Shown piece by piece: positions 5,520 to 58,723 of a stretch of DNA of 64,000 nt. The notes under the pieces are model-generated. The model was given only the letters and a program-made list of their open reading frames with translations, had not been told where the DNA came from and ran no database searches. The stretch comes from Acidobacteriota bacterium (GTDB lineage Bacteria; Acidobacteriota; Terriglobia; Bryobacterales; Bryobacteraceae): positions 130,879-194,878 of the forward strand of contig JANXSF010000020.1 in NCBI GenBank assembly GCA_025352795.1. The letters run 5' to 3'. The translations under genes and the position numbers were made by a program. Numbering within the stretch: position 1 is the stretch's first letter; each line of letters begins with the position of its first letter.

Positions 5520-6875
5520 GTGACACTCATATCATACAAGGCGGCTAGGGGAAAACGGCTTGAGTTCGGTGATTTTCAAACACCCGCTGCACTGGCTGCA
5601 TCCACAGTCCGTCACGTTTACGAACAAGGTTTCAGACCGCGTTCAGTGCTGGAACCAACTTGTGGCCAGGGATCTTTCATCCATGCGGCACTGCATCAAT
5701 TTCCACTTTTGGAACGTGTAGTTGGGGTAGACCGCAACGCCGAATATCTTTCCGAATTGAGTGGAGCAGATAAGCGGGTTGAATTGATTGAAGCCGATTG
5801 CTTCGCCATCAACTGGAAACAATGCATTGCATCGCTTCCGCAGCCGTTGCTGATTTTAGGAAATCCGCCCTGGGTCACCAGTTCACGGCTCGGCGTGTTG
5901 GAATCCGGCAATGCCCCGGCGCGCGAATCCACCGCTGTGCAACGCGGACTGGACGCATTGACCGGCAAAAGTAATTTTGATGTTTCCGAATGGCTGCTGC
6001 TGCAGTGGATAGATGCCATGCAAGGGTTGGACTCCCGAATGGTGATGCTGGTGAAGTCATCGGTAGCGCGGCGCATCATGGTCCGCTTGGCCAATGGGAA
6101 CTTGGGGGCCACTACAATTTCGATAGATGCCAAAAAGTATTTTGATGCCGACGTAAGTGCCTGTTTGCTGGATGTTCATGCTGCAGGGCCAAGGTTGGCA
6201 ACGCATAACGGGCTGTTGATTTCCAACCAAACACTGTTTGATAAAAGGAAAAATCTGGCAGCAACAGAGCGCATCAACTGGCGCAGTGGCATTAAACATG
6301 ATGCCGCAAAAATACTGGAACTCACAGCATTAGGCAATGATAGTTACAGCAATGGATTCGCAGAAATAGTGCAGCTGGAAGGCAACCACTTGTACCCGCT
6401 ACTGAAGAGTTCCGACCTGTCCCGAACCTTACTGCCGCAGCCCCGTCGCATGTTGCTTGTCCCACAATTGAAGACCGGCGCACCCACATCAAACATTGCG
6501 CCTCTAACGATGGCTTACCTTGAAAGCCATAGCGCGATACTGGACGCGCGGGCCAGCAGTGTTTATAAACGCGCACCTCGGTTCGCCATCTTCGGAGTGG
6601 GCGACTACACGTTCGCACCCTGGAAAGTGGCCACCAGTTGTTTGCATAAGAATTTGAGATTCCACGCCATCGGTCCAATAGAAGGTAAGCCCGTCGTGTT
6701 TGACGACGCTTCTGCGTTTCTAAGTTTGGAAAGCCAGGCCCAAGCGGAACAAGCGGCTCTGTTGTTCAACTCCATACCAGCCAGGGAATTTTGGGAGTCG
6801 CTGGTTTTTTGGGATGCCAAGCGTCCCATTACCATCGAACTGCTGCGTACCCTATCGCTTCAAAAATTAATCTGA
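5520..6875 (+). CDS. N6-adenine DNA methyltransferase, gamma class, no adjacent nuclease
   Basis: FGDFQTP near the N-terminus. SAM motif I EPTCGQGSF (aa 45-53) precedes catalytic motif IV NPPW (aa 115-118, nt 5862-5873). The long C-terminal half is plausibly a target-recognition domain. GTG start at 5520 is the only in-frame start upstream of the motifs. Confidence 0.75.
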   Translation: MTLISYKAARGKRLEFGDFQTPAALAASTVRHVYEQGFRPRSVLEPTCGQGSFIHAALHQFPLLERVVGVDRNAEYLSELSGADKRVELIEADCFAINWKQCIASLPQPLLILGNPPWVTSSRLGVLESGNAPARESTAVQRGLDALTGKSNFDVSEWLLLQWIDAMQGLDSRMVMLVKSSVARRIMVRLANGNLGATTISIDAKKYFDADVSACLLDVHAAGPRLATHNGLLISNQTLFDKRKNLAATERINWRSGIKHDAAKILELTALGNDSYSNGFAEIVQLEGNHLYPLLKSSDLSRTLLPQPRRMLLVPQLKTGAPTSNIAPLTMAYLESHSAILDARASSVYKRAPRFAIFGVGDYTFAPWKVATSCLHKNLRFHAIGPIEGKPVVFDDASAFLSLESQAQAEQAALLFNSIPAREFWESLVFWDAKRPITIELLRTLSLQKLI

Positions 6876-16983: not shown

Positions 16984-17433
16984 ATGAAAACGACAATCCT
17001 GTTATTTTTAACTCTGTCTGCCTGTGGGGCGGCTTCTATCGGCGAACGTGTGGAGTATATTGGTGGAACGTTAGATACTTTTGCGGGCAAGGTGGATGGC
17101 CGGGTGGTCACCTCAAACCAGGAGTTTTTGCGCTTTCAGACAAAGAGCAAAGGGGTGAATGTCCCATATGCGAAGATCAACGTGATTGAATACGGTCAAA
17201 AAGTGGATCGTCGTTATCTAAGTGCTGTTTTTCTTTCTCCCTTGTTTCTTTTGGCAAAATCGCGCAAACACTTTTTAACCGTCGGGTTTGAGGATGAACA
17301 GGGCAAGCAGCAAGCACTCATTTTTCGCGTGCAAAAGACCGATGTCCGAGCGCTGCTGGTTAGTTTGGAAGCCCGCACCGGGCGCAAGATTCAGTATCAG
17401 GATGAAGAAGCTAGAAAGGCTGGTAAAGGATGA
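16984..17433 (+). CDS. hypothetical lipoprotein
   Basis: Lipobox LTLSAC after a hydrophobic leader. 149 aa, no other motif. Confidence 0.6.
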   Translation: MKTTILLFLTLSACGAASIGERVEYIGGTLDTFAGKVDGRVVTSNQEFLRFQTKSKGVNVPYAKINVIEYGQKVDRRYLSAVFLSPLFLLAKSRKHFLTVGFEDEQGKQQALIFRVQKTDVRALLVSLEARTGRKIQYQDEEARKAGKG

Positions 17434-17443
17434 GGTGTAAAGT

Positions 17444-18061
17444 ATGAGGCGCAGCGTATTCCTTGGTTTGCTGGCGTGTTGCGCTGTTTGTGCGCTGGAG
17501 CAGCGACAAGACTTCCTGAAAGCGGTGACGTCCATCCGTCGGGTCTATGTCGATAAATTGAATGGTGGCGATCAGGCGCAGCATATTCGTGACATGATCA
17601 TCACCAGTCTGCAAAATTCCAACCTGTTCATAATCACGGAAAATGAAGATAAAGCCGACGCCGTAGTTCGCGGGTCAGCCGAAGATCTTATTTTCACTGA
17701 GTCGCATCAATCCAGTGACGGAGTGAATGCCCATACCCAAATCTCGCTGCCCGGAACCAACGGCAGCACCAGCGGCAGGAATTCGAATCGCACAGGCATT
17801 GGAATGACGGTGGGCGATCATGAATCCCAGCAAACGACCGAGCGTAAACATGAATCCGTAGCAACTGTGCGATTGGTATCGAAAGATGGTGACGTTATCT
17901 GGTCCACAACACAGGAAAGTCAGGGTGGGAAATTAAAAGGTGCCAGCAAAGATGTGGCGGACAAGATCACCAAAAAGCTACTGGACGATATACAAAAGGC
18001 TCGTAATGCGCTGACTACTCCAAAACTCGAACCAGCTTCCGTTGTGAAGTCGCCCCGCTGA
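17444..18061 (+). CDS. hypothetical lipoprotein
   Basis: Leader MRRSVFLGLLAC (lipobox-like). 205 aa. Begins 10 nt after the preceding gene. Confidence 0.6.
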   Translation: MRRSVFLGLLACCAVCALEQRQDFLKAVTSIRRVYVDKLNGGDQAQHIRDMIITSLQNSNLFIITENEDKADAVVRGSAEDLIFTESHQSSDGVNAHTQISLPGTNGSTSGRNSNRTGIGMTVGDHESQQTTERKHESVATVRLVSKDGDVIWSTTQESQGGKLKGASKDVADKITKKLLDDIQKARNALTTPKLEPASVVKSPR

Positions 18062-18077
18062 GTATTGGTACGCCTAT

Positions 18078-18108
18078 CCGAGCCGTGACCGCAAGGGAGC
18101 GGTGTTTG
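18078..18108 (+). repeat. REP element (left flank of RAYT)
   Basis: CCGAGCCGTGACCGCAAGGGAGCGGTGTTTG contains the internal hairpin ACCGC-AAGGGA-GCGGT and overlaps the RAYT start codon region. Confidence 0.8.
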
Positions 18109-18600
18109 TGCTATTTCATTACCTTCACATGCTATGGGACGCGATTGCACGGCGACGAATCGGGATCGGTGGATCGTCATAACAGTTTAGTTGGCAGCCG
18201 ACGTTTGGAGCCCGATACCTTTCGTGTCCTGGCGGAGAGTCGAGAAATGCTTCAGGATCCCTATGTGCTCGACGAAGCGGCCCGGCAATCGGTGCTGGCG
18301 GCCATCCGAAAGCATTGCGCTCACCGGGGTTGGAACCTGCAGGTGGCGCACTTGCGGTCCAACCATGTGCACGTGATCGTGGAAGCCGGCATCCGGCCTG
18401 AGAGAATAATGAATGAGTTCAAAGCCTACGCCAGCCGTGCGCTAAACCAGTTGACAAGCGAGGGACCTTATCGGAAACGCTGGTCGCGTCATGGAAGCAC
18501 GCGTTGGCTGTGGAAGGAAGAGGATGTGAGTCATGCCCTTCGGTACGTAGTCGAAGAACAGGGTAAGCCCATGGCGTTGTTCGTCTCCGACAAGCTTTGA
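18085..18600 (+). CDS. REP-associated tyrosine transposase (RAYT; IS200/IS605 TnpA-like)
   Basis: N-terminal beta-strand CYFITFTCYGTRLHG, HUH motif SNHVHVIVE, candidate catalytic Tyr in EFKAYASRALNQ. 171 aa. Start is GTG 18085 or TTG 18106, both inside the left REP. Confidence 0.8.
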   Translation: MTARERCLCYFITFTCYGTRLHGDESGSVDRHNSLVGSRRLEPDTFRVLAESREMLQDPYVLDEAARQSVLAAIRKHCAHRGWNLQVAHLRSNHVHVIVEAGIRPERIMNEFKAYASRALNQLTSEGPYRKRWSRHGSTRWLWKEEDVSHALRYVVEEQGKPMALFVSDKL

Positions 18601-18605
18601 GGCAA

Positions 18606-18636
18606 CAAACACCGCTCCCTCGCGGTCACGGCTCGG
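18606..18636 (-). repeat. REP element (right flank of RAYT, inverted)
   Basis: CAAACACCGCTCCCTCGCGGTCACGGCTCGG is the reverse complement of the left REP except for one base (G/A). Confidence 0.8.
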
Positions 18637-18731
18637 TATCGAAATTTCCTCGCCTCCGCTGCGATGTCCATCACAGGGTGCCGTCGTGCATACCGCAGGA
18701 TTAGTAGATCGAAAATTCCCTCGCCACCGTT

Positions 18732-31314: not shown

Positions 31315-33420
31315 TTAGGATACTTCTTTCGCCCATTGCGTAAAAGTCTTGCCCTCTTCTGCTAACTTTTTCAGCAACGGAGCTGGCTCCCATAGTTCAC
31401 CGTGCTGCGCTTCAAATTCCTTCGCCCGCCGGTAGACTTCCGGCAGCCCAACCGTATCGGCATAAAACATTGGCCCACCGCGATACACCGGGAAACCATA
31501 GCCCGTAAGGTAAATCACGTCGATGTCCACCGGACGCAGGGCAATCTTTTCTTCCAGAATCCGAGCACCTTCGTTGACCAGTGCGTACAGAGTTCGCTCA
31601 ATAATTTCTTCGTCGGAAATTGTGCGTCGGGCAATGCCAGCGCCTGCCGTCAGCCGTCCGATCAAATCGTCCACAACGGGATCAGGACTGGGCTTTCGCT
31701 TATCGTCATACAAATACCAACCGGCTCCTGTCTTCTGCCCAAAGCGACCCATTTCGCAAAGTTCGTCAGCCACCATTGGCACGCGAAGCCCAGGCTTTTC
31801 CAAATGCTTGAATTCTTTTCGGATGCGCCAGCCCACATCAAGGCCTGCTAAATCACCCATAGCCAGCGGCCCCATGGCCATGCCCCATTGGTAAAGCGCT
31901 GCGTCCACTTGCTGTGGAGTGGCGCCTTCTTCCACCAGGAACTGTGCCTCGCGACCGTAGCAGTGGATCATGCGGTTACCCACAAATCCTCGACAATTGC
32001 CCACCAGCACGCCCACTTTGTTCAGCTTTTTAGCAAGACCCATGGAAGTGGCGATCACGTCTGAACCTGTAGCGGCACCGCGTACGATTTCAAGCAGCCG
32101 CATCACATTGGCGGGGCTGAAATAATGCGTTCCAATCACATCAGCCGGACGCGAAGTCGCCGATGCAATCTCATCAATACTCAATGTGGAAGTGTTCGAT
32201 GCGAGGATGCATCCGGGCTTGGCAATTCCATCTATCGCCGCAAAGATTTCCTTCTTCAGGGCCATGCCCTCGAAGGCAGCTTCAGTGATAATATCGACCT
32301 GATCGAATCCATCGTAAGTCAGTTGCGGAGTGATCAACGCCATGCGCTGCTCCATCACTTCGGCGGAAAAACGTCCTTTTGCTACGGAATTGGAGTAGTT
32401 TTTGCGAATGATGGCCAGGCCACGCTCTAACGCTTCACTGGAGCTTTCCTTCAAAATCACTGGGATACCCGCGTTCACAAAGTTCATAGTAATGCCGCCG
32501 CCCATGGTTCCTGCACCAATCACCGCCGCGCGCTTAATCTCACGAACCGGCGTATCCTTGCCAATGCCCGGTATTTTGGCCACTTCCCGTTCGCCAAAAA
32601 ACGAGTGAATCATGGCCTTGGATTGCGTGCTGAACAAGCACTTTTCAAAGATTTCCCGCTCACGCTGGCAGCCTTCGGCAAAGGGCAGAGTAGTGGCCAA
32701 TTCCACCGCGTCAATGGCTGCCAAAGGTGCCGCCTGATTGCGATGCGTCTTCTTTGCTGTGGCGCGTGCTTCGGCGAAAACAGCAGCATTTCCAGTTGCT
32801 GTACGATCCCTTGGCTTGGGATACGGGCCCCCTTTATCGGCCATTTCATTGGCAAAAGCTACTGCACCGGTTAAAAGATCACCATCGATAATCCGATCCA
32901 AAATCCCCGCAGCCAGGGCGACGTCAGCCTTCACTGGTTCGCCAAAGGCGCACATCTTCGTCGCCAACTCCACGCCAGCTAGCCGAGGCAATCGTTGCGT
33001 TCCAGCCGCCCCAGGGATGATCCCCAGCTTGACTTCAGGCTGGCCCACTAGTGCCGATGGAACTGCCACCCGGTAATGCCCACCCATAGCCACTTCAAGC
33101 CCGCCTCCGAACGCTGTGCCATGAATCGCCACCACCACTGGCTTGGCCGAATCTTCCATGGCCAACATCACTGGAAGCAGGGTTGATTCCCGCTTGGCCC
33201 CACTGGTAATCTTGCCGAACTCCTTGATATCAGCACCCGCGATGAACGTGCGGCCACCGCCAATCAAAACAATGGCCTTCACTTCGGCATCTTCCGCGAA
33301 CTGTTTTAGCCCATCGGCAATCCCTTCAGGAACCCCAGGACTCAACGCATTCACTGGTGGATTGTTCACGGTAATCACACCGACGGAACCTTGTTTGCTG
33401 AAAATAATCAAGTCGCTCAT
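31315..33420 (-). CDS. bifunctional enoyl-CoA hydratase / 3-hydroxyacyl-CoA dehydrogenase (FadB/FadJ-like)
   Basis: 701 aa. N-terminal crotonase fold (NPPVNAL, FIAGADI, GGGLE), then [12 protein letters not shown]-binding and 3HCDH C-terminal repeats. Confidence 0.9.
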
Positions 33421-35054
33421 GCTTTTCGTTTCTCCAATTCGCTATCCCGCAGTTCTCTGCGCAAAACTTTTCCAACACTGCTTTTGGGCAACGCAGCAAC
33501 AAATTCCACTTCACTGGGAACTTTAAACTTTGCCAGGTGCCCTTTCAAATATTCCAGGATTTCGGCAACCGAAGCCGCTGCCCCAGGCTTTAACACCACG
33601 AAAGCTTTCACCGCTTCTCCACGATACGGATGCGGAACCCCAATGACACATGCTTCCATAACTTTCGCATGCTTAAAAAGTATTTCTTCCACCTCCAGCG
33701 GAAATACTTTAAGACCGCTAACGATGATCATGTCCTTCACACGTTGGACAATGTAGAAGAAACCATCCTCATCCATTTTCGCAACATCGCCAGTGTGCAT
33801 CCACCCATCGCGCAAAGCATGGGCGGTTTCTTCAGGCTGGTTCCAGTAGCCCTTCATGATCTGCGGACCGCGCACGCACAGTTCCCCTTCCTCACCAATG
33901 CCAACTTCTGTCACATGATCCATCAGATCCACAATCTTGAAGTCCGTGCTGGTAACCGGAATGCCAATGCTGCCGATCTTGCGCTTCGCCAGCAGTGGTG
34001 TGGTGGATGCAGTGCAAGCAGTCTCCGACATTCCAAAACCTTCCCGCAACATCGCTCCACTCATAAGCTCGAACTGTTCTATTACTTCGACGGGTAAAGG
34101 TGCGGAACCACTGTTGAAGTTCTTCACCTTGTGCAGGCCGCAGGTCTTCGCTTCCGGGTGGTTGAGCAGGGCAATAAATAAAGTAGGAACTGCCGGGAAA
34201 AAAGTGGGCGAGTATTGTTTGAAAGCGGCGATCAACATGTTGATGTCGAACTTGGGAATCAGAATGGTCATGGTGCCGTTCCAGGCACTCAACAATAGCC
34301 CAACCACTTGCCCGTAAATATGGAAGTAAGGCAGCACCATCAGCATGCGCTCTTCACCGCGGCGTGTATGATACGAATTCCAAAGTACGTTCTGAATGGT
34401 GTTGGCAAATAGGTTGTAGTGGGTCAACATGGCACCCTTCGGAGTACCTGTGGTCCCGCCGGTGTACTGCAACAAGGCGACATCTTCGGTGGCATTTATC
34501 TGCACCCGAGGCAGTACGCCAACATTACCTTCCGATACCAGTTTGTTCAACAGCAATGGAAAGCCTGTTAACGGTGTTCCATCCAAGGTATATTCGGCTA
34601 ACGATGTGACGATGACATGCGCAACATGAATTTGTGCAGCCTCAGCCAACGGTGCAAGCAGGTCCAGAGTTATTAATGCGCAGATGCCTGCATCCAGCGC
34701 CACCACCGCCAATTCCCGAGCCGTATAGGCAGGGTTGATGTTCGTCGCAATGGCTCCCAGCCGCATCAACGCAAAAAACGTGATGGGATACTGGGGGCAG
34801 TTCGGCAGCATGATGCCGACCCTATCGCCTTGCCGAATGCCCAGTGCGTGCAGGCTGGCCGCCATTCGATCAGCCTGTTCTTTGATCTCTCCAAATGTAA
34901 GCTGCGCTCCAAAGAAGACGGTAGCCGGACGGTCACGATATTGGCTGGCTGCGGTTTGGAGAATCTGGTACAACGACTGCTTGGGGAAATTCGTTGTTGG
35001 CGGAACCCAGAAATCGTAATTGTTCAGCCAAGGTCGACTTGCGTAGACGCTCAT
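33417..35054 (-). CDS. long-chain fatty-acid--CoA ligase (AMP-binding)
   Basis: [21 protein letters not shown] motif, GYGMSE-like GFGMSE, HTGD, SGLKVFP. The stop overlaps the fadB-like start (ATGA). Confidence 0.9.
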
Positions 35055-35082
35055 TTAACCTGAATCCTGAACTGAGTGGTTT

Positions 35083-35186
35083 CTTGGTTAAAAGACCGCT
35101 CCCTTGCGGTCACGGCTCTGTCACGTTCTGATTCTACCGAGCCGTGACCGCGAGGGAGCGGTTTTTCAAAGGGCTGATACGCTTCG
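35083..35186. repeat. REP doublet (REPIN-like) copy 1
   Basis: GACCGCTCCCTTGCGGTCACGGCTC (35094-35118) and its inverse CCGAGCCGTGACCGCGAGGGAGCGGT (35138-35163) are separated by about 19 nt. About 100 nt are roughly 90 percent identical by eye to 57234-57340. The arms match the REPs flanking the RAYT. Confidence 0.8.
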
Positions 35187-35259
35187 TGATGAAACCTGAA
35201 GCCATCCGATTGCGGGAACACTAAGTGACATTGGGCCATGGATTGAAAGTCGACGCTCA

Positions 35260-36036
35260 TTAAACCGCCGTTCCACCGCCATCCACGGCGATCGTTTGAC
35301 CTGTAATATAGCCGCTAGCTTCGCTGGCCAAAAATACGGCGACGCCCTTTAATTCCCCTGGCAAACCAGCGCGCCGCATCGGAACATTGGCCGTGATGGA
35401 AGGCATCACTTGATCCATAATCTTCTCTGTCATCCGCGATGGGAAGAAGCCCGGAGCAATGGCGTTCACCCGAATATTATGCTGCGCCCACTTCGCCGCC
35501 AGCTCTCTGGTGAGTGCGATTAAGCCACCCTTGGACGCCACATATCCGGCATAGTGCAAGCCTTCAGGCATGCTACCGCGCAACCCGGCGATGGATGCAA
35601 TGTTGATGATGCGCCCAAACTTCTGAGCAATCATATGCTTAGCGCAAGCCTGAGAAAACAGGAACGCACCGGTGAGGTTGGTATCCAAAACTTCATGCCA
35701 CTTATCGAGCGGCATGTCTTCGGCGGGAGCGCCCCAACTCACTCCAGCGTTGTTCACCAGAATGTCGATGTGTCCGAAGTGTTCCAAGGTTTTATCCACT
35801 GCCGCTTTCACTTCGTCGGGACTGGTGATGTCGCAAATAGCCCCTTCGCAATAGAAGCCTTTGCGCTTAAAATCTTTTACGGCAGGGGTAAGCCATTTGT
35901 CTCGTCGAGCGACAAGCATCAGCGAACAACCCGCCTCGGCCAGCCCTTCGGCCATTTCTTCACCCAAGCCTCGCGACCCGCCAGTGACCAGGGCAACTCG
36001 GCCATCTAAATCGTAAACGTCTCGTAGAGATTTCAT
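35260..36036 (-). CDS. SDR family oxidoreductase
   Basis: TGGSRGLG cofactor motif, NNAG, catalytic YVASK. 258 aa. Confidence 0.9.
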   Translation of the reverse strand: MKSLRDVYDLDGRVALVTGGSRGLGEEMAEGLAEAGCSLMLVARRDKWLTPAVKDFKRKGFYCEGAICDITSPDEVKAAVDKTLEHFGHIDILVNNAGVSWGAPAEDMPLDKWHEVLDTNLTGAFLFSQACAKHMIAQKFGRIINIASIAGLRGSMPEGLHYAGYVASKGGLIALTRELAAKWAQHNIRVNAIAPGFFPSRMTEKIMDQVMPSITANVPMRRAGLPGELKGVAVFLASEASGYITGQTIAVDGGGTAV

Positions 36037-50892: not shown

Positions 50893-50968
50893 TGGTGAGC
50901 CGGGCGGGGCTCGAACCCGCGACCACCGCATTAAAAGTGCGATGCTCTACCAACTGAGCTACCGGCTC
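50893..50968 (-). tRNA. tRNA-Lys (anticodon UUU), CCA encoded
   Basis: Hand-folded cloverleaf: acceptor GAGCCGG/CCGGCTC, D stem GCTC/GAGC, anticodon stem UCGCA/UGCGG with loop CUUUUAA, T stem GCGGG/CCCGC with loop TTCGAGC, discriminator A plus CCA. 76 nt. Confidence 0.95.
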
Positions 50969-52613: not shown

Positions 52614-54071
52614 TTATAGGCTTCGTTTCTTAATTTCAATACTCAAACGCTTGATCTTTTGATTCAGAGTGGAGAGGGGAATGTGAAGCCGCTCGGCCGC
52701 CTCAGTCTGACTATAGCTGACTTCGTCCAGAACTTGAAGGATTTTCGCTCGCTCAAAATCGGCCACCATCTCATATAGGGATGCATCCGATGGAAGATTC
52801 CCGCTGGAATCGTGACGAATGCGCATTCCTCCGGCTTGCAAAAGTGTCTCCGGCAAAGCAGTCGCAGGCACTACGGAACTGGTCGCCAGAACCACGGCAC
52901 GCTCCACTGCATTTTCCAACTCTCGCACATTTCCCGGCCAGGCGTGTTCCATCATCAGGTGCAATGCTTCCGGTTCAAACTGAAGCATGCTTCGACCTTG
53001 AGGGTCCAGAAACTTGTCGTTTTCCTTGCAATACCTGCTGAAGAAGTGCTCAATCAACGGAGGAATGTCTTCCTTGCGATCGCGCAACGGCGGCAGTTGC
53101 ACGTTGATCACATTCAGCCGGTAATACAGATCCTCGCGAAATCGGCCTTCCTCAACCAGGCGTTTCAGCTCGGAATTGGTAGCCGCCAAAATACGAACAT
53201 CCACCCGAATGGTTTCCGTGGACCCCAGCGGCATGAATTCGCGTTCTTGAATTACCCGCAGAAGCTTGGCCTGCGTCTCCAAACTCACAGTTCCGATTTC
53301 GTCAAAGAAAATCGTCCCATGATTGGCCGTTTCAAAGCAGCCCTTATGTGTGGAAACAGCGCCCGTAAAGGCGCCCTTAGCATGTCCAAATAGTACCGAT
53401 TCCAATAGTTCCGCCGGTAGCGATCCGCTATTGACGGCAATGAATGGATGATCCACACGTGGGGAATTCGTATGGATGGCTTTGGCAATCAACTCCTTGC
53501 CTGTGCCCGTTTCGCCTGTAATCAGAATGGTGGTGCGGCTGGGCGCAATCTGCGTCACCAGATCCAGAATCCGCAACATACGGTCACTTTTGCCGACGAT
53601 GTTGGGGAAGCTATAGCGCTGCTTTAGCGCCCGTTTCAACTCACGATTTTCATGCTCCAGGTGGCTCTTGCTGATCTGCCTGTCAATTTCAATCAGCAGC
53701 TTTTCGTTGTCCCATGGCTTTGAAAAATAATCGTTGGCCCCATTCTTCAGTGCCTGCACGGCAACTTCCAGAGAGCCGTAGGCGGTAATCAAGAAGACTG
53801 GGGTGACGGTGTCCCGCTGACGAAACTCCGCCAGAAAGTCGATGCCTGATTTATCGGGCAACATCAGGTCCAACAGCACTAAATCAAAAGAAGTCGTTTC
53901 CAGACGGGCCAACCCTTCGTTCGCTGTAACTGCCTGATCGACACGGTAATTTTCCAGAGTTAAAAGGGTTTCCAAACCCTCACGAATATCTTCTTCGTCG
54001 TCCACAATTAAGATGCGGGCACGGGGAACATTGCTGTGGCTGGAGTTGGGGTCGGAAGTGGGCTCAGGCAT
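52614..54071 (-). CDS. sigma-54-dependent response regulator (NtrC family)
   Basis: Receiver domain (ILIVDDEE...LVLLDLMLPD), AAA+ GETGTGKELIAKAIH, GAFTGA, ESELFGH-like ESVLFGH, C-terminal Fis-type HTH. Confidence 0.92.
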   Translation of the reverse strand: MPEPTSDPNSSHSNVPRARILIVDDEEDIREGLETLLTLENYRVDQAVTANEGLARLETTSFDLVLLDLMLPDKSGIDFLAEFRQRDTVTPVFLITAYGSLEVAVQALKNGANDYFSKPWDNEKLLIEIDRQISKSHLEHENRELKRALKQRYSFPNIVGKSDRMLRILDLVTQIAPSRTTILITGETGTGKELIAKAIHTNSPRVDHPFIAVNSGSLPAELLESVLFGHAKGAFTGAVSTHKGCFETANHGTIFFDEIGTVSLETQAKLLRVIQEREFMPLGSTETIRVDVRILAATNSELKRLVEEGRFREDLYYRLNVINVQLPPLRDRKEDIPPLIEHFFSRYCKENDKFLDPQGRSMLQFEPEALHLMMEHAWPGNVRELENAVERAVVLATSSVVPATALPETLLQAGGMRIRHDSSGNLPSDASLYEMVADFERAKILQVLDEVSYSQTEAAERLHIPLSTLNQKIKRLSIEIKKRSL

Positions 54072-56988
54072 TTACCGCTTTCCTCGCCAGAGGAAATTCC
54101 AATTGGAAACGGGCACCCTCACCGGGCTTACTTTGAACATCAATGGAACCGCCATGTTCTTTTACGATACCGTAAGTGACGGCCAGCCCGAGGCCGGTGC
54201 CCTTTTTGGGTGCCTTAGTAGTAAAAAATGGATCGTAGATGCGGCTAAGGAGTTCCGATGCAATGCCCGATCCCGTATCAGCGATCGTCACAACAGCCTG
54301 ATCCTCTTCGGCGAAGGTCACAATTTCCAAAGTGCCACCCTTTTCCATGGCATCGCGGGCATTCAAGATCAGATTGAGAAATACCTGTTGTAGCTTGCCT
54401 GGATTTCCTTTCACTAAACCTAATTGCGGATCAAGCTTTTGCTTAATATTTACCAACCCACTGGACAGTTGCGGGGCCACCAAAGAAAGCGTTTCCACAA
54501 TCACTTTGTTCAAATCAATCTCTACGAATTCAACCGGAGAGGTTCGCGAAAAATTGAGTAGGGAATTAACGATTTCACTGGCACGGAAGGTTTGTTTGGC
54601 AATCTTCTCTAACAGTTTCGACTTACTTTCATCCCCTTGTACTTGCTTTGCCAGCATCTGGGCATAGGTTGAAATCACCGCCAGCGGCGTATTCACTTCA
54701 TGAGCCACTCCGGCGGCCAGCAACCCGATGGAAGACAGTTTGTCAGCCTGCACTAAACGAGTTTCCAGTTCCGCACGCACAGTGACGTTGTCAAAAATGA
54801 TCAACCGGCCAATTCGTTCCCCATCTTTCGATACCAGCGGAGCCACGGCAATGTTCAGGGTGGAAGCCTCTACGTCAGCCGTGGGCAGCATCTCGAATTT
54901 GTAAATGTTATGGACACCAGCTTCGTGCCGCACTTGATCCAGGTGACTAACAAGCGACGCTGGCAATAGCTCCCGCAATCGGCATCCAACTGCCTGATCA
55001 CGGCCCACTCCGGTCAACCGTTCCATCTGGTTATTCCAGCTCTCCACACGATCTTCCAGATCCGCAGCCAGAATCCCCACATTGATCGATTCCACAATGT
55101 TTTCGCTAAACTCTTTCAGCCGTTCGTACTCGTCAGCTTTGCGTTGCAACGAACGGTAGAGTCGGGCATTTTCAATGGCGATGCCTACGTAACCAGCCAA
55201 CGTCACCAACAACTCAACGTCGTCGCTGGAAAGAAAATCGCCTTTTTCTGTTCGACTGATCCCCATCCAGGCGATGGTCCGTCCACGAGCATTGCATGGC
55301 ACGTAGTAGGTTAAATCCAAATCGGCGATGGTATGACGGACGCTTTGCGCATAATTGGCCATACGCGCATCCAGCACATTCCGCGTCCTTTCAAAGAAGA
55401 GGTAGGGAGTATCAAGAGGAAAGGTCAAAAAGCTTAGATCCATCAGGTCAGGAACCGGTCGGGAAAGCCCCGCCGTTAGATAAATCCGGTAACTATCTCC
55501 TGATTCCGCTTCCAGAAAGAAAGCGATGTGCTTAATGGACAGCGTACGAATCAACCGTTCAGCCACAGAATTCAGCACGCCGTTCAAATCAGTTTCAGTG
55601 CTCAACTCGCGGGCAAATTCGATCAGTGTCCGCCGATAATCGTAATTTTCTTTGTAGAAGAAATAGCGGTCTAACAGTTCCTGTATCCAGTTGCGGATGG
55701 GTTGAAAAATGAACGTGGCAATCAGAATCACCGTGACCATGGATGCTGGTGTCAGGTCATCCAGTTTGCCTAAGGTAACAATCAGCCCGTAGAAGACAGC
55801 AAGCACGGCAAGTGTCGCAATGGTGTGCACGTACCCTTGCTGGAAAATGACATCCACATCCATCAATCGGTAGCGGATCGTGGCGTAGGCCCACGTCAGA
55901 GGAAGGAAAATCAGAAACAGGATGGTCATTTCCATGTAGCCGTTGGGAACCACGCCAGCGGTATAGGGAATCACGTAGAACAAAGTGAACGGAATGACTC
56001 CGATCATGACGCCGTTACGCAGCCATTTTAGTTGGTTGCGGATAATAGGGTCTTCTTCCTTGCTGTGGGCAATTGCCAGCACCATTGCACCGGCTAAATA
56101 ACCTGTGGAAAGGAATGGAAGCCAAATTCGATCCAGCACCCAACGAAGTTCAATCAACGAAAAAACAGTTTGCAGGGTGCCGCTGGTGACCAAAAAGAAC
56201 ACCACAGCAATTCCAGCCGCAGGCAGGTAGAGCAAGGCTGCCCCGAAAAAACGCTTCAGCCAACGCCTTGGTTCAGGAAAGGTGAGAGTGAAATGCAGAA
56301 ATAGCGATGGGACCAGCAATCCGGCAAGGAAGTTGCCGAAGTAGATCACCTTGTCAAAGTTGTTCAGCTTTCCTGTGTAGTGGAAGGTAGAAAGAATGAA
56401 AGATGCCAGGCACAGAACGTAAAAGTGAATGGCTTTATCCGCATCGCCCCGGCGAAAATAGACAAAAAGTCCGATAAAAAGATAAGCCGCACCAACCAGA
56501 TATTGGTAGTAAAGCAAGGTGGATGGAGTATGCTCTCCAATCAATACTTGGATGGGCACAGGGGTGGGATCACGATCAGGACGGGGATCTACCCGTTCGA
56601 TCACGTAGACAGCTTTTTGCCAAGCTCCAAAACCGATCAGAACACGGGTGACTTCCATTGCCGTATCAATGTGAGTTCCAGGTGAAGGATCAGCCCCAGG
56701 GGCGGTTACTGGACGGATAATGCGAAGAACATCGCCATTTTTGATACCCGCCTTGGCCCCAGGCCCTTCCGGTTCAACATAAAATGCAACAACTGCAGGT
56801 CGAAGTTTGCCATCAGGTTTGGTCGCCGGTTCAAAACGATCCACCCAAGTGACGCCATCTTCGGGGATGCGAAACTTCTTTTGCTGTTGGAAATTCACGG
56901 CGGCAGCGACAACCGCAGCCATCGTCAAGATGACCAGTAACGCGCCGATTAATTGTCGTTTGAGTTCCCGCACAGAGCGAACCAACAC
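54064..56988 (-). CDS. multi-pass membrane sensor histidine kinase (GAF/PAS-HisKA-HATPase)
   Basis: 974 aa. N-terminal extracytoplasmic segment followed by several TM helices. H-box AGVAHEVNTPL. N, G1 and G2 boxes (LNLILNARDAM, DTGSGI, GTGLGL). Its stop overlaps the regulator start by 8 nt. Confidence 0.88.
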   Translation of the reverse strand: MLVRSVRELKRQLIGALLVILTMAAVVAAAVNFQQQKKFRIPEDGVTWVDRFEPATKPDGKLRPAVVAFYVEPEGPGAKAGIKNGDVLRIIRPVTAPGADPSPGTHIDTAMEVTRVLIGFGAWQKAVYVIERVDPRPDRDPTPVPIQVLIGEHTPSTLLYYQYLVGAAYLFIGLFVYFRRGDADKAIHFYVLCLASFILSTFHYTGKLNNFDKVIYFGNFLAGLLVPSLFLHFTLTFPEPRRWLKRFFGAALLYLPAAGIAVVFFLVTSGTLQTVFSLIELRWVLDRIWLPFLSTGYLAGAMVLAIAHSKEEDPIIRNQLKWLRNGVMIGVIPFTLFYVIPYTAGVVPNGYMEMTILFLIFLPLTWAYATIRYRLMDVDVIFQQGYVHTIATLAVLAVFYGLIVTLGKLDDLTPASMVTVILIATFIFQPIRNWIQELLDRYFFYKENYDYRRTLIEFARELSTETDLNGVLNSVAERLIRTLSIKHIAFFLEAESGDSYRIYLTAGLSRPVPDLMDLSFLTFPLDTPYLFFERTRNVLDARMANYAQSVRHTIADLDLTYYVPCNARGRTIAWMGISRTEKGDFLSSDDVELLVTLAGYVGIAIENARLYRSLQRKADEYERLKEFSENIVESINVGILAADLEDRVESWNNQMERLTGVGRDQAVGCRLRELLPASLVSHLDQVRHEAGVHNIYKFEMLPTADVEASTLNIAVAPLVSKDGERIGRLIIFDNVTVRAELETRLVQADKLSSIGLLAAGVAHEVNTPLAVISTYAQMLAKQVQGDESKSKLLEKIAKQTFRASEIVNSLLNFSRTSPVEFVEIDLNKVIVETLSLVAPQLSSGLVNIKQKLDPQLGLVKGNPGKLQQVFLNLILNARDAMEKGGTLEIVTFAEEDQAVVTIADTGSGIASELLSRIYDPFFTTKAPKKGTGLGLAVTYGIVKEHGGSIDVQSKPGEGARFQLEFPLARKAVNA

Positions 56989-57233
56989 TTCCCCACCAGG
57001 GCTGTTGCAATTATGTCACCACTTGGATGGCGTCTGCCAGATTCATTTCCGTCATATGATTTCAATCACTTAGCTATTGTGGAAAAAGGCTAAGTTCTGA
57101 TTCTGGGATATGCACACTATTAGAAAGTGTAGAGTTCCCCAACAGTGTGCAAGATTCAGCTCGGCCTTTAACCGGAATCGCAAGGTTGGATGGCTGCTGG
57201 CATCCGTGGCCTAACTTGTTGCGGGAAAACTAC

Positions 57234-57340
57234 TTTTGGTTAACAAAAGACCGCTCCCTTGCGGTCACGGCTCGGTAACACACTGATTCTACAGAGCCGT
57301 GACCGCGAGGGAGCGGTTTTTCAAATGCCTGATACACTTC
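57234..57340. repeat. REP doublet (REPIN-like) copy 2
   Basis: GACCGCTCCCTTGCGGTCACGGCTCGG (57249-57275) and the inverse GAGCCGTGACCGCGAGGGAGCGGT (57293-57316). Nearly identical to 35083-35186, including the flanking TTGGTTA and TTTTTCAAA..CTGATAC..CTTC. Confidence 0.8.
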
Positions 57341-57394
57341 ACTCCAACACTTGAGGCAATTCCGCCTGCCCGCTCGTTTGCGTTAACAGGGCTC

Positions 57395-58723
57395 TTAGCT
57401 AGTCAGACCGCCAAGTTTTTGCGTTGCCGTGGGGAATTTTTGTATGTCGGCGTGCATCACGTCATCAGCCACAGTCAAGTAAAGATCCGCCACAGTTCCA
57501 GTCATTTTGGAATGAACTCCGGTAACTAATTTGGGATTGGCGTGCCCCGCAATAATGGCGGCCATGCCATTATTTTTGTGATCGTTGGCTTCCGCATGTT
57601 CATGGACATACAACAGGCAGGTGTTATCGAATACTGTTCTTTCACCTTCGTTAATTGAGCGCAACTTATTGCAAAGATACGCAAATTCTTCGGCATGCCA
57701 GTGACAAATATCGCGCATGGTTCGTTGACCTGCCAGTTTCCCGGGGCTGTTCGACGGCGCGTCACCATGCGTGTAATCGTGATGCCGACCGTGGGTGTAG
57801 CCCAGCCACGGGAATCGCGATAGGCCCTGACACTTGGTCAACATGTAGCTGGCCACCCTGGTTTGCCGCGAAGCAAACGCGTGGGTCAGCAGGTCCGATT
57901 GCAACCGGGCAATTCGTGGCCAATCTTTCATATCCCCGTCGTAATCCGGTTGCTCCACTTTCCGATAATTAGCAGGAAGCCCATCAATGGCCCGTTCCAT
58001 GTCCCGAATGGATTGCAGATGCTCATCAACTTTGCCTGTATCTTCTGCACCTAAATTTTTCTTGAGCCCAGCTAAATCTTCCCGCACGGCATCCAGGATG
58101 CTATGCTTCCGCTTCACCCAACCATCTTCCCGCGCACCAAACAAGCGATCAAAAAGCTTATGGGGCAACATTTCTGGCGGCAAAGGACGGTCATAACCAG
58201 CCCAACTCATGTTGCGTTGAATGCTTTCCCCAAACGATTCCTGCGAAACTCCAATCTGCAAAGATCGAAAGCGTGACGTCCCTCCAATTTTCTGGGCAAT
58301 CACTTGGTCAATGGATGGACCACCCGCTCCCCTGCCAGTGAATTGGGTACCGCTCATCAGCGCACTCATCGACCGATGATGATCATTTCCAGGCCCCGGC
58401 ATACGCGCTGCAGGATTATCCAGACCAGTGACAATGTGGATGTCTTCTTTGAACGTCTCCAGCGGCGCAAGGCATGGAGTCATAGAAAAATCGCGACCAG
58501 TTTCCGAAGGGATCCAATATTTTTCCACAATGCCGTTGCCGTTGAACCACAGCACAAAGCGCGTTTCAATCTTACTTTGACCGGCTGCCCAAGCGGTGCC
58601 ATTCCCATTAAACATGGCTGCCAAAGGTGGAAGTCCTACGCGAATCGCCGAACCGGCAATGGTTGCTCCGCTAAGAAATCGGCGGCGCGAAATATTGGTT
58701 GGACGGGTTGAGATGTTGCTCAT
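57395..58723 (-). CDS. DUF1552 domain-containing protein (Tat leader)
   Basis: [16 protein letters not shown] leader and [14 protein letters not shown] (HxxSHH-like family signature). The ATG overlaps the upstream stop (ATGA). Confidence 0.85.

Follow-up and report, generated by a model that had tools for sequence, protein, structure and literature searches.

A probable class 3 TnpA-Y1 transposase gene between inverted REP hairpins in a Bryobacterales genome

We found that a Y1 transposase gene and the two short repeats around it, in a 64-kb stretch of bacterial DNA (the window), probably form a class 3 TnpA-Y1 REPtron, i.e. an HUH/Tyr single-stranded DNA transposase gene with two cognate repeats, in a member of the Bryobacterales. 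No other case of a host-linked, single-copy transposase that persists while its short substrates multiply is as well studied as REP/RAYT. RAYT, REP, BIME and REPIN systems were reportedly described by Nunvar in 2010, by Bertels & Rainey in 2011 and by Ton-Hoang in 2012. Nearly all work on REP/RAYT concerns Gammaproteobacteria. The present locus cleanly exemplifies a rare and little characterised type, the third Y1 class, which is intermediate between IS200 and RAYT. The initial annotation had inferred an acidobacterial host, and the relatives were indeed Bryobacterales. A REP/Y1 system outside Gammaproteobacteria is not new: Quentin et al. (2018, BMC Genomics 19:475, PMC6006769) had reported class 3 TnpA-Y1 genes from Acidobacteria and Planctomycetes, and about 600 hairpins from Solibacter usitatus. 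Going by the published motif signatures, the present locus would be a new instance of that type. The features are as follows.

18078 to 18108, plus strand: left REP (sequence, repeat match, covariation-supported fold and the same arrangement in homologous loci)
18078 to 18081, plus strand: foot CCGA of the left REP (sequence)
18082 to 18103, plus strand: 22-nt hairpin of the left REP (fold backed by covariation), with the outer pairs G18082·T18103, C83-G102, C84-G101, G85-C100 and T86·G99, then tandem G·A (18087/18098 and 18088/18097), C89-G96 and C90-G95, and the loop GCAA at 18091 to 18094
18095 to 18099, plus strand: Shine-Dalgarno-like GGGAG in the left REP
18104 to 18108, plus strand: T-rich tail GTTTG of the left REP
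18106 to 18600, plus strand: putative class 3 Y1 HUH transposase, RAYT-like, 164 aa from TTG (Pfam, motifs and predicted structure)
18606 to 18636, minus strand: right REP, inverted (sequence and repeat match), with foot CCGA at 18636 to 18633, hairpin at 18632 to 18611, loop GCGA and tail GTTTG at 18610 to 18606
18653 to 18676, no strand assigned: degenerate remnant of the right terminal inverted repeat (TIR), CCTCCGCTGCGATGTCCATCACAG, identical at about 15 of 24 positions to TCTCCACTTCTATGTCGCGCACCC, the consensus of the relatives (alignment of the downstream region)
35090 to 35167, no strand assigned: REP doublet 1 (REPIN), head-to-head (repeat match and folding), with arms at 35090 to 35120 (minus, foot CAGA) and 35137 to 35167 (plus, foot CCGA) and a 16-nt spacer
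57245 to 57322, no strand assigned: REP doublet 2 (REPIN), head-to-head (repeat match and folding), with arms at 57245 to 57275 (minus, foot CCGA) and 57292 to 57322 (plus, foot CAGA) and a 16-nt spacer

The bracketing of the gene by the 31-nt repeat CCGAGCCGTGACCGCAAGGGAGCGGTGTTTG and its reverse complement was confirmed. The inverted copy has one base changed, A/G in the loop, and it starts 5 nt past the stop codon of the Y1 gene; in most homologous loci, 1-16 nt separate the stop from the right REP. The two flanking hairpins, each the reverse complement of the other, are inverted around the gene in a tail-to-tail arrangement, as in the RAYT / TnpA-REP systems (class 2), and are not the same-strand subterminal hairpins of the IS200/IS605 family (class 1). 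Most of the 80 metagenomic homologue loci carried the same repeat on both sides of the gene, pointing inwards; the foot in homologue loci was CCGA or CTGA. When the upstream regions of 34 homologous loci were aligned with MAFFT, a remnant of the cassette's conserved left flank emerged to the left of the REP, at 18058..18077 on the plus strand. It reads CTGAGTATTGGTACGCCTAT, whereas the relatives have GAGCGTAGTGGTACGCCAAA, a small GCGTA-NNNN-TACGC hairpin. There is overlap between this remnant and the stop codon of the preceding gene (17444..18061). When the cassette consensus was compared with the left flank of the window copy by blastn-short, only 18066-18084 was covered.

The proposed Y1-transposase layout was borne out. 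The protein matched Pfam Y1_Tnp at 31.2 bits (cut-off 23), and its AF2 model (pLDDT 77, pTM 0.76) had IS200 (2f4f), RAYT (4er8), ISDra2 and IS608 as its top Foldseek matches, all with probability 1.0, 2vih and 2xma being among the structures matched. Identity to the solved structures was 10-14%, and a sequence search of PDB gave no significant match, the relatives being found by fold search. In the AF2 model, the protein is predicted to adopt the Y1 HUH fold with the tyrosine on the C-terminal helix, as in IS200/IS605, Y147 being on helix 138-151. The motif HVHVIV had been read as the HUH motif, and H87 and H89 were invariant in 43 homologues; they lie in S-N-H-V-H-V (residues 85-90), where N86 is at least 90% conserved. 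The catalytic tyrosine had been assigned to EFKAYASRALNQ (KAYASR), and here the annotation must be corrected. In the 164-aa numbering this residue is Y108, and in the Sulfolobus Y1 transposase (2ec2) its position corresponds to the FKGKSAR helix. From the alignment, the catalytic residue is likely to be Y147 in RYVVEEQ, which forms the Y-x4-Q motif Y147-V-V-E-E-Q152; both Y147 and Q152 were invariant in the 43 homologues. All 25 invariant residues, including H87, H89, Y147 and Q152, are kept in the window protein. Among the 84 columns conserved at 90% or more, it departs at six (median 3), mostly by conservative substitutions. Contigs that belong to four separate assemblies and samples encode the identical protein.

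The published signature of class 3 comprises NHVH, W[TA], YV[VI][AENY]EQ, a CnGA foot and occurrence in Acidobacteria (PMC6006769, with the HUH motif in its Table 1). The window protein has NHVH (within SNHVHV) and YV[VI][AENY]EQ (as YVVEEQ), and the hairpins are weak and have a CnGA foot, which is CCGA on both flanking REPs and CAGA or CCGA on the four doublet arms. The second motif is matched in part: after the invariant W126, at least 90% of the homologues have A, and the window protein has S, not T or A. The class described by Quentin et al. (2018), for instance in Solibacter usitatus Ellin6076, likewise has conservation reaching the N-terminus, atypical weak flanking hairpins, a 5′ CnGA foot, dispersed hairpins, low gene copy number and an acidobacterial host of the same order. 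The hairpin fold, the doublet organisation, the overlap with the start codon, the outer TIRs and the target duplications are not in PMC6006769 and are all added here.

The locus had been called a RAYT flanked by REPs. The Y1 HUH gene with inverted cognate hairpins stands, but it is not a canonical RAYT. Its score against the NCBIfam RAYT model NF047646 was 30.3 bits, well under the curated cut-off of 80, and against the IS200 model NF033573 it was 29.6 bits, again under the cut-off (55); all 43 of 43 family members matched both models weakly. Neither GTAG nor GTGG was found at the base of the covariation-supported stem, so the GT[AG]G foot of class 2 is lacking. RAYT / TnpA-REP systems of E. 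coli and Pseudomonas do resemble this one in having a single Y1 HUH gene, inverted flanking short hairpin repeats, the same protein fold (4er8), and further copies of the repeat in intergenic positions, where head-to-head doublets capable of long hairpins prevail. Unlike them, it has Y-x4-Q instead of YIxxNP, a CnGA foot, and a shorter hairpin with internal tandem G·A and a GNNA loop, and its host belongs to another phylum. IS200/IS605 transposases (IS608, ISDra2, IS200) share the Y1 HUH fold and the Y...Q motif and, by analogy, may share strand-specific hairpin recognition. In contrast to the multi-copy elements of that family, with their same-strand hairpins, the Y1 gene here is present in one copy in the 64 kb; no second copy was detected there by tblastn, and there is no tnpB.

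The ORF at 18085..18600 on the plus strand, 171 aa from GTG, is present as annotated. Both candidate starts had been placed inside the left hairpin. This is right for GTG 18085, which is in the 5′ arm, but TTG 18106 lies 2 nt 3′ of the hairpin, in the conserved T-rich tail. We considered GTG 18085 as the start and rejected it. Most homologues are 164 aa long, and where a call is longer, the frame in which it translates the REP varies (RAATARERCLRYF versus YRDRKGAVLRYF); therefore, the stretch upstream of TTG would not be coding. By this comparison, the gene likely starts at TTG 18106, giving 164 aa, and the in-frame GTG 18085 is probably not used. The hairpin ends exactly 2 nt before a TTG in 23 of 75 distinct homologous loci, and a TTG right after the hairpin is the norm in the clade.

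The GGGAG in the 3′ arm is the sole Shine-Dalgarno-like motif ahead of this start, 6 nt away, although such a motif was seen in only about half of the neighbouring genes, which makes its role here uncertain. We dropped the idea that the motif is displayed in the loop, as the extended fold puts it in the 3′ arm. The left REP would then double as the translation initiation region, its 3′ arm providing GGGAG and its tail a weak TTG start. With the motif in a hairpin arm and a weak start, translation would therefore be expected to be low and to need opening of the hairpin. The claim that the substrate hairpin occludes translation of its own gene is plausible, the left REP RNA hairpin having a folding energy of -11.4 kcal/mol. 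The folding of the mRNA 5′ end does not single the gene out: at 10.5 kcal/mol, its initiation region has an opening energy that ranks second from the top among 13 neighbouring genes, but it is no outlier. There is a precedent in IS200 (Ellis et al. 2015, PMC4513863): the Shine-Dalgarno sequence is sequestered in a 5′UTR stem-loop, a left-end hairpin that limits transposase translation. Unlike in IS200, the hairpin bearing the motif here is the presumed substrate repeat itself. This merging of presumed substrate hairpin, ribosome-binding site and TTG start is conserved, and offers a testable point for class 3.

The REP fold was examined by covariation. In an alignment whose sequences were picked by similarity to a consensus and are related by descent, 28 cells were changed on both sides of a pair, compared with 4.8 ± 2.0 in shuffles, and none of 500 shuffles scored as high. 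At pair 11-16, 98 sequences had CG and 12 had UA; at pair 10-17, 106 had CG and 8 had GC. The GNNA loop was present in 120 of 129 REP sequence types. These data support a fold with a 5-bp stem, tandem G·A, a 2-bp stem and a GNNA loop. A simple ACCGC/GCGGT stem was rejected; it showed no covariation, and 492 of 500 shuffles were at least as good. The hairpin is strand-specific, as only one of the two strands has the G·T wobbles, the tandem G·A and the GNNA loop. With nearest-neighbour parameters, a single REP hairpin was no more stable than shuffled sequence (z -0.5). Rfam at gathering thresholds gave no family but a tRNA, and at E values up to 1 only spurious matches to miRNA hairpins, far under threshold. 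The covariation-backed fold, with tandem G·A and a GNNA loop behind the CnGA foot, is usable for substrate design.

It had been noted that the core of the repeat occurs four more times in the window, as two inverted doublets, and this was confirmed. Allowing up to 3 mismatches, we found six matches to the 26-nt core in the 64-kb window, at 18083(+), 18606(-), 35090(-)/35142(+) and 57245(-)/57297(+), and none in 100 dinucleotide shuffles. Doublet 1 sits in the gap between two same-strand genes, 33417..35054(-) and 35260..36036(-). It folds into a hairpin of about 35 bp (RNA -60.2 kcal/mol, z -9.1; DNA -33.6 kcal/mol, z -8.0) and is 85-92% identical to copies in other Bryobacterales MAGs. A conserved extra arm on its right, reaching to about 35232, is the right arm of a larger composite element. 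Doublet 2, between 54064..56988(-) and 57395..58723(-), folds with -63.0 kcal/mol as RNA (z -11.8) and -37.8 kcal/mol as DNA (z -11.5). Its likeness to copies in other genomes spans 57211-57354, L023 being 94% identical across 123 nt and L068 90% identical across 144 nt. Both doublets show the same arm asymmetry, AAGGGA versus GAGGGA. A REPIN in the sense of Bertels & Rainey in 2011 is said to be two inverted REPs with a short spacer that form one long hairpin, the doublet being the replicating unit; the window doublets have the inverted REPs, the short spacer and the long predicted hairpin.

Of 27 doublets in related genomes, 20 were likewise head-to-head, and exact cores numbered at least 25 in one of two related MAGs and at least 19 in the other. 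Only 39% of the repeats were in long open frames, compared with a background of 89%, i.e. they are depleted there. In the related species, the conserved unit exceeds the doublet in size: the doublets are central in an element of about 205 nt with ends TAATGCCGCATAGTTTTCC and flanking direct repeats of 10-13 bp. Many REP copies in related genomes were singles or doublets with no recognisable outer arms, and the outer arms are incomplete in both window doublets. Matches to the ends of the composite element at 5735, 32233, 40879 and 63354 in the window lay inside coding sequence and were discarded as chance.

The gene itself is also part of a larger unit in the relatives. In 14 loci, the whole cassette is enclosed by 20-bp TIRs, GGGTGCGCGACATGAAAGTG, and in five of the homologue loci (L080, L098, L102, L117 and L145), perfect 9-bp direct repeats of unrelated sequence lie just outside the TIRs. 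The L080 copy is a 195-bp derivative that lost the gene and still has a perfect duplication. In the window, no match to the TIR was found at up to 4 mismatches, and the right remnant has no left counterpart; about 85 nt of the native upstream region of the relatives are missing as well. Judged from these alignments, the window copy has lost its left TIR and its right end has decayed. As to the active or recently active state proposed in the annotation, the intact ORF and catalytic residues would fit it, and the missing left TIR and native upstream region would not. Among the homologue loci there was almost no synteny, which at such divergence is uninformative on vertical inheritance; the lack of synteny together with the cassettes bounded by TIRs and target duplications would argue against strict vertical inheritance of the family. 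TIRYTs, or TIRtrons, are likewise Y1 genes within TIRs, with an acidobacterial group reported and with repeats overlapping the 5′ end of the gene recorded as '5'ov' (Di Nocera et al. 2013, PMC3733652). In the window the Y1 gene is not enclosed by TIRs, though it is in at least 14 homologue loci. Most TIRYTs belong to subclass 2.1 and their TIRs share GGGGWSAS (PMC3733652), whereas the TIR here is different and lies outside a REP pair; that paper makes no mention of target duplications.

If the locus is a class 3 REPtron, the analogy with IS608 TnpA and E. coli TnpA-REP predicts an enzyme that binds the hairpin in single-stranded DNA, and on one of the two strands. It would cut and rejoin the DNA beside the foot, using Y147 together with the metal site formed by H87/H89, and this would move or amplify the repeats. 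The repeats do lie elsewhere as head-to-head doublets, in intergenic gaps. In the relatives, the whole cassette, with its 20-bp TIRs and 9-bp target duplications, would itself be a transposable unit. The window copy, with its left end lost and its right end decayed, would therefore be a fixed single copy, probably co-transcribed. Tentatively, and with more doubt than confidence, we propose two tiers of mobility: a TIR element that makes 9-bp target duplications and is moved by a DDE-type enzyme would carry the cassette between sites, and perhaps between genomes, the landed cassette would seed hairpins, and the hairpin would gate translation of the enzyme; in the window, the cassette would have landed, lost its outer ends and become fixed. 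The signs, in the relatives, of cassette movement with 9-bp target duplication offer class 3 a further testable point and bear on how domesticated systems reach new genomes.

It is also conceivable, though rather unlikely, that a DDE-type transposase acting in trans on the TIRs spreads both doublets and cassette in the manner of MITEs, the Y1 gene being cargo or having another role. The TIR-bounded cassettes, the perfect 9-bp duplications in five loci, the gene-deleted L080 copy and the near lack of synteny all fit this, and Y1 transposition of the IS200/IS605 kind is not known to make a target duplication. The relatives indeed resemble MITEs moved by DDE insertion sequences in their short inverted ends, 9-bp duplications and internally deleted non-autonomous derivatives (L080 and L033). 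The doublets of related MAGs sit within an element with its own ends and direct repeats, and therefore their dispersal may owe nothing to the Y1 enzyme. However, no partner transposase was detected: in the loci covered, a search for a DDE gene with the cassette TIR yielded only a fragment (L010) and chance matches, and no matching autonomous insertion sequence was found. Unlike a MITE, the unit has as cargo a Y1 transposase gene together with the hairpin repeats that belong to it. The many REPs that are single or lack outer arms, and the incomplete arms of the window doublets, speak against such spread. The pairing of gene and hairpin is tight and conserved in more than 50 loci, which argues that the enzyme uses the hairpins. 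Mobilisation by a DDE enzyme and use of the hairpins by the Y1 enzyme are mutually compatible.

We regard it as unlikely that the window copy is a decaying relic, with a silent or defunct gene and fossil repeats possibly kept as terminators by the host. The missing left TIR and upstream region, the right TIR at about 15 of 24 positions, the six departures from conserved columns, the weak TTG start in a structured initiation region, and the terminator-like doublets between same-strand genes would suit such decay. However, the ORF is intact with every invariant residue kept and mostly conservative substitutions, the two flanking REPs match each other but for a single mismatch over 31 positions, and the identical protein recurs in four separate assemblies and samples. 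The TTG after the hairpin is no defect, being the norm of the clade.

Two further explanations found little favour. An ordinary autonomous IS200/IS605 insertion sequence with palindromic ends by chance is highly improbable: Y-x4-Q as in IS200-type TnpA, an IS200 HMM match as good as the RAYT match and an IS200 transposase as the top Foldseek match speak for it, but the inverted hairpins leave one strand without both ends, the score is 29.6 bits against a cut-off of 55, the gene is single with no tnpB, and the repeats occur alone at other sites here and in other genomes. That the repeats are host intrinsic terminators or regulatory hairpins unrelated to the enclosed gene is just as hard to credit, even though a consensus scan called both flanking repeats terminator-like and A and T runs flank the doublets; the same 24-nt sequence brackets gene homologues in dozens of unrelated contexts, a single REP is a weak hairpin, and the CnGA foot, tandem G·A and GNNA loop are kept although a terminator has no need of them. 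The doublets, with an A-run, a long hairpin and a T-run, resemble bidirectional terminators. The REPs may have a secondary use as terminators.

The locus appears to add a new member to a known, little-studied class of Y1 transposases, class 3. The ORF, the two 31-nt inverted repeats around it and the two further inverted doublets described in the initial annotation were all confirmed. Its reading of the kind of system also held, but the novelty had been overstated.

Features of the locus and of the dispersed repeats
16984..17433 (+), small upstream ORF, same strand as the transposase gene, without Pfam hits
17444..18061 (+), second such ORF, likewise without Pfam hits
18078-18108 (+), left REP
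18106..18600 (+), transposase gene, 164 aa from TTG 18106 (171 aa from GTG 18085)
18606-18636 (-), right REP
18653-18676, decayed right terminal inverted repeat (TIR), about 15/24 bases identical, the sole TIR kept in the window
35090..35167, doublet 1
57245..57322, doublet 2

The 26-nt core of the repeat had six matches in the window with at most three mismatches, and none in 100 dinucleotide-preserving shuffles. The transposase gene has one copy within the 64-kb window. For the transposase and its REPs, what is said here of cleavage, mobility, hairpin-mediated regulation and present-day activity is inferred.

Quentin et al. 2018 (PMC6006769) distinguish three classes of Y1 transposases: IS200 (class 1), RAYT (class 2) and class 3, a small one hosted by Planctomycetes, Acidobacteria and Proteobacteria. 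Class 3 proteins have the motifs NHVH, W[TA] and YV[VI][AENY]EQ, with conservation extending to the N-terminus, and weak, "atypical" hairpins that carry a 5′ CnGA foot lie on either side of their genes; Solibacter usitatus has about 600 such hairpins and three class 3 genes (PMC6006769). The window protein has SNHVHV, WS and YVVEEQ, and CCGA or CAGA lies directly 5′ of the hairpin in the window repeats, both of which fit this description. The closest DNA matches among those listed were Bryobacterales MAGs, from the same order as Solibacter. On these grounds the locus is filed as an apparent class 3 member, as judged from the published description of the class.

Pfam Y1_Tnp matched the window protein at 31.2 bits (cut-off 23). 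It fell far short of the cut-offs of two curated NCBIfam models, RAYT (30.3 against 80 bits) and IS200 (29.6 against 55 bits), as did all 43 aligned homologues. The homologue family is large and acidobacterial, with 2055 clusters at E ≤0.001 (names, where given, include Bryobacteraceae and Candidatus Angelobacter). An AlphaFold model of the transposase (pLDDT 77, pTM 0.76) was matched about equally to IS200, RAYT (4er8), ISDra2 and IS608 transposases (probability 1.0, 9-14% identity). The catalytic tyrosine had been placed in KAYASR (Y108). However, the counterpart of Y108 in a solved Y1 transposase falls in the FKGKSAR helix, and one homologue has His in place of Y108. The residues invariant among the 43 homologues include H87, H89, W126, Y147 and Q152, and we take the predicted catalytic residue to be Y147, within RYVVEEQ on the last long helix.

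The hairpin initially drawn for the REP, a simple ACCGC/GCGGT stem, was not supported by sequence variation: it had a single cell with changes on both sides, a result equalled or beaten by 492 of 500 shuffles. Support was found for an extended fold on GAGCCGYGACCGNNAGGGAGCGGT, ..(((((..((....))..))))), for which 28 cells changed on both sides among sequences picked by similarity to the consensus and related by descent, compared with 4.8 ± 2.0 in shuffles (0/500 as high). The clearest compensatory changes were at the two inner pairs, C-G to U-A (12 types) and C-G to G-C (8 types). A tandem G.A makes up the internal loop, and 120 of the 129 sequence types have G-N-N-A as the loop. The wobble pairs, G.A pairs and loop are present on one strand only, which fits an HUH enzyme recognising single-stranded DNA.

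The usual called length of homologues, 164 aa, is equivalent to a start at TTG 18106. Longer homologue calls translate the repeat in differing frames, which argues that the stretch upstream of the TTG is not coding. We surveyed 80 homologue loci from metagenomes, with 75 distinct upstream regions; the commonest layout was the hairpin end, 2 nt and TTG (23/75), and a few further loci had CTG, GTG or ATG 1-3 nt after the hairpin. Distant homologues (55-62% identity) start with ATG, the repeat lying 12-35 nt upstream. In most homologue loci the right repeat follows the stop codon by 1-16 nt.

As RNA, the left REP hairpin has a folding energy of -11.4 kcal/mol, and a Shine-Dalgarno-like GGGAG (18095-18099), 6 nt before the TTG, lies entirely within its 3′ arm. 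An occluding hairpin has a precedent in IS200 (PMC4513863), and Di Nocera et al. (PMC3733652) brought up the idea for REPtrons. Opening positions -15 to +3 costs 10.5 kcal/mol, which ranks second among 13 neighbouring genes (range 1.2-13.3), so the proposed occlusion of transposase translation is plausible but not extreme.

When the flanks of the homologue loci were aligned, non-coding sequence beyond the repeats proved to be conserved as far as 20-bp TIRs (GGGTGCGCGACATGAAAGTG), which form its ends some 105 nt ahead of the start codon and some 80 nt past the stop codon. In five such cassettes (L098, L102, L117, L145 and L080) the TIRs are directly bordered by perfect 9-bp direct repeats, unrelated in sequence and read as target-site duplications (GACCGAGGG, GTTGATGGG, TTCAGCGGG, ATGCTGTGC and AACTACACG); L144 and L033 were also listed with TIR-bounded cassettes. 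In L080 (195 bp) and L033, derivatives of about 200 bp have lost the gene and kept REPs and TIRs. Y1 transposition is not known to duplicate its target. Thus, a different mechanism, probably of DDE type, appears to move the cassette. A partner transposase for the TIRs did not turn up in the loci searched. Among the homologue loci there was almost no synteny. Such cassette ends are not mentioned for class 3 in PMC6006769 or PMC3733652.

The window has no left cassette end because the stop of the upstream gene 17444..18061 comes 17 nt ahead of the foot. With the right end only about 15/24 identical, the window copy is therefore fixed. The only visible route to transcription of the transposase gene would be read-through from the two upstream same-strand genes; the second of these stops 44 nt short of the TTG, and co-transcription of all three is therefore possible. 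This second ORF begins with a lipoprotein-like signal (MRRSVFLGLLACCAVC). A small hairpin, GCGTA-NNNN-TACGC, is conserved about 20-35 nt upstream of the left REP, just before its foot, in most homologue loci; the window version (18058-18077; GAGTA-TTGG-TACGC, 4/5) overlaps the upstream gene's stop codon. In an Rfam search of the window, only a tRNA gene (50896-50968, -) reached the gathering threshold.

The two doublets of the window are arranged head-to-head, with central feet, 16-nt spacers and outward tails. Each occupies an intergenic gap whose neighbouring genes share a strand, and folds into a hairpin of about 35 bp (z -8 to -12). At least three other species-level MAGs have doublets with 85-94% identity to them. 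Among the matches listed, exact cores numbered at least 25 in one related MAG and at least 19 in a second, 20 of 27 doublets across related-MAG loci were head-to-head, and the repeats were depleted in long open frames (39% vs 89% background).

In eight related-MAG loci (L016, L051, L081, L026, L015, L049, L023 and L004), the doublet is central in a composite element of about 205 nt with inverted ends TAATGCCGCATAGTTTTCC ... GGAAAACTATGCGGCATTA and 10-13-bp direct repeats alongside. Doublet 1 lacks the left terminus and retains the right arm (35168-35232) as far as its end at 35232; doublet 2 has only a partial right arm (57323-57354). The sequence GGTT(T/A)AATGAGCGTC, from around a stop/start junction, occurs on both sides of the doublet-1 element (35040-35060 and 35250-35266): one copy is at the ATG of gene 33417..35054 (-), the other at the end of gene 35260..36036 (-), where its stop codon lies. 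It looks as if insertion into an overlapping TAATG junction duplicated the junction sequence. A Gemmatales MAG (Planctomycetota; L052, 2096-2158) carries two tail-to-tail copies of the window's REP separated by 8 nt. Other single exact matches to the REP (Streptomyces, Flavobacteriales and Actinomycetes records) are no more than chance would give for a 19-mer in 596 Gb. In the flanks of L016, L051, L081 and L009, several composite elements were inserted into the same small palindrome (GGCAGGCATTCAGCCTGCC), which suggests a further family of short hairpin repeats that serves as a target, or nested repeats.
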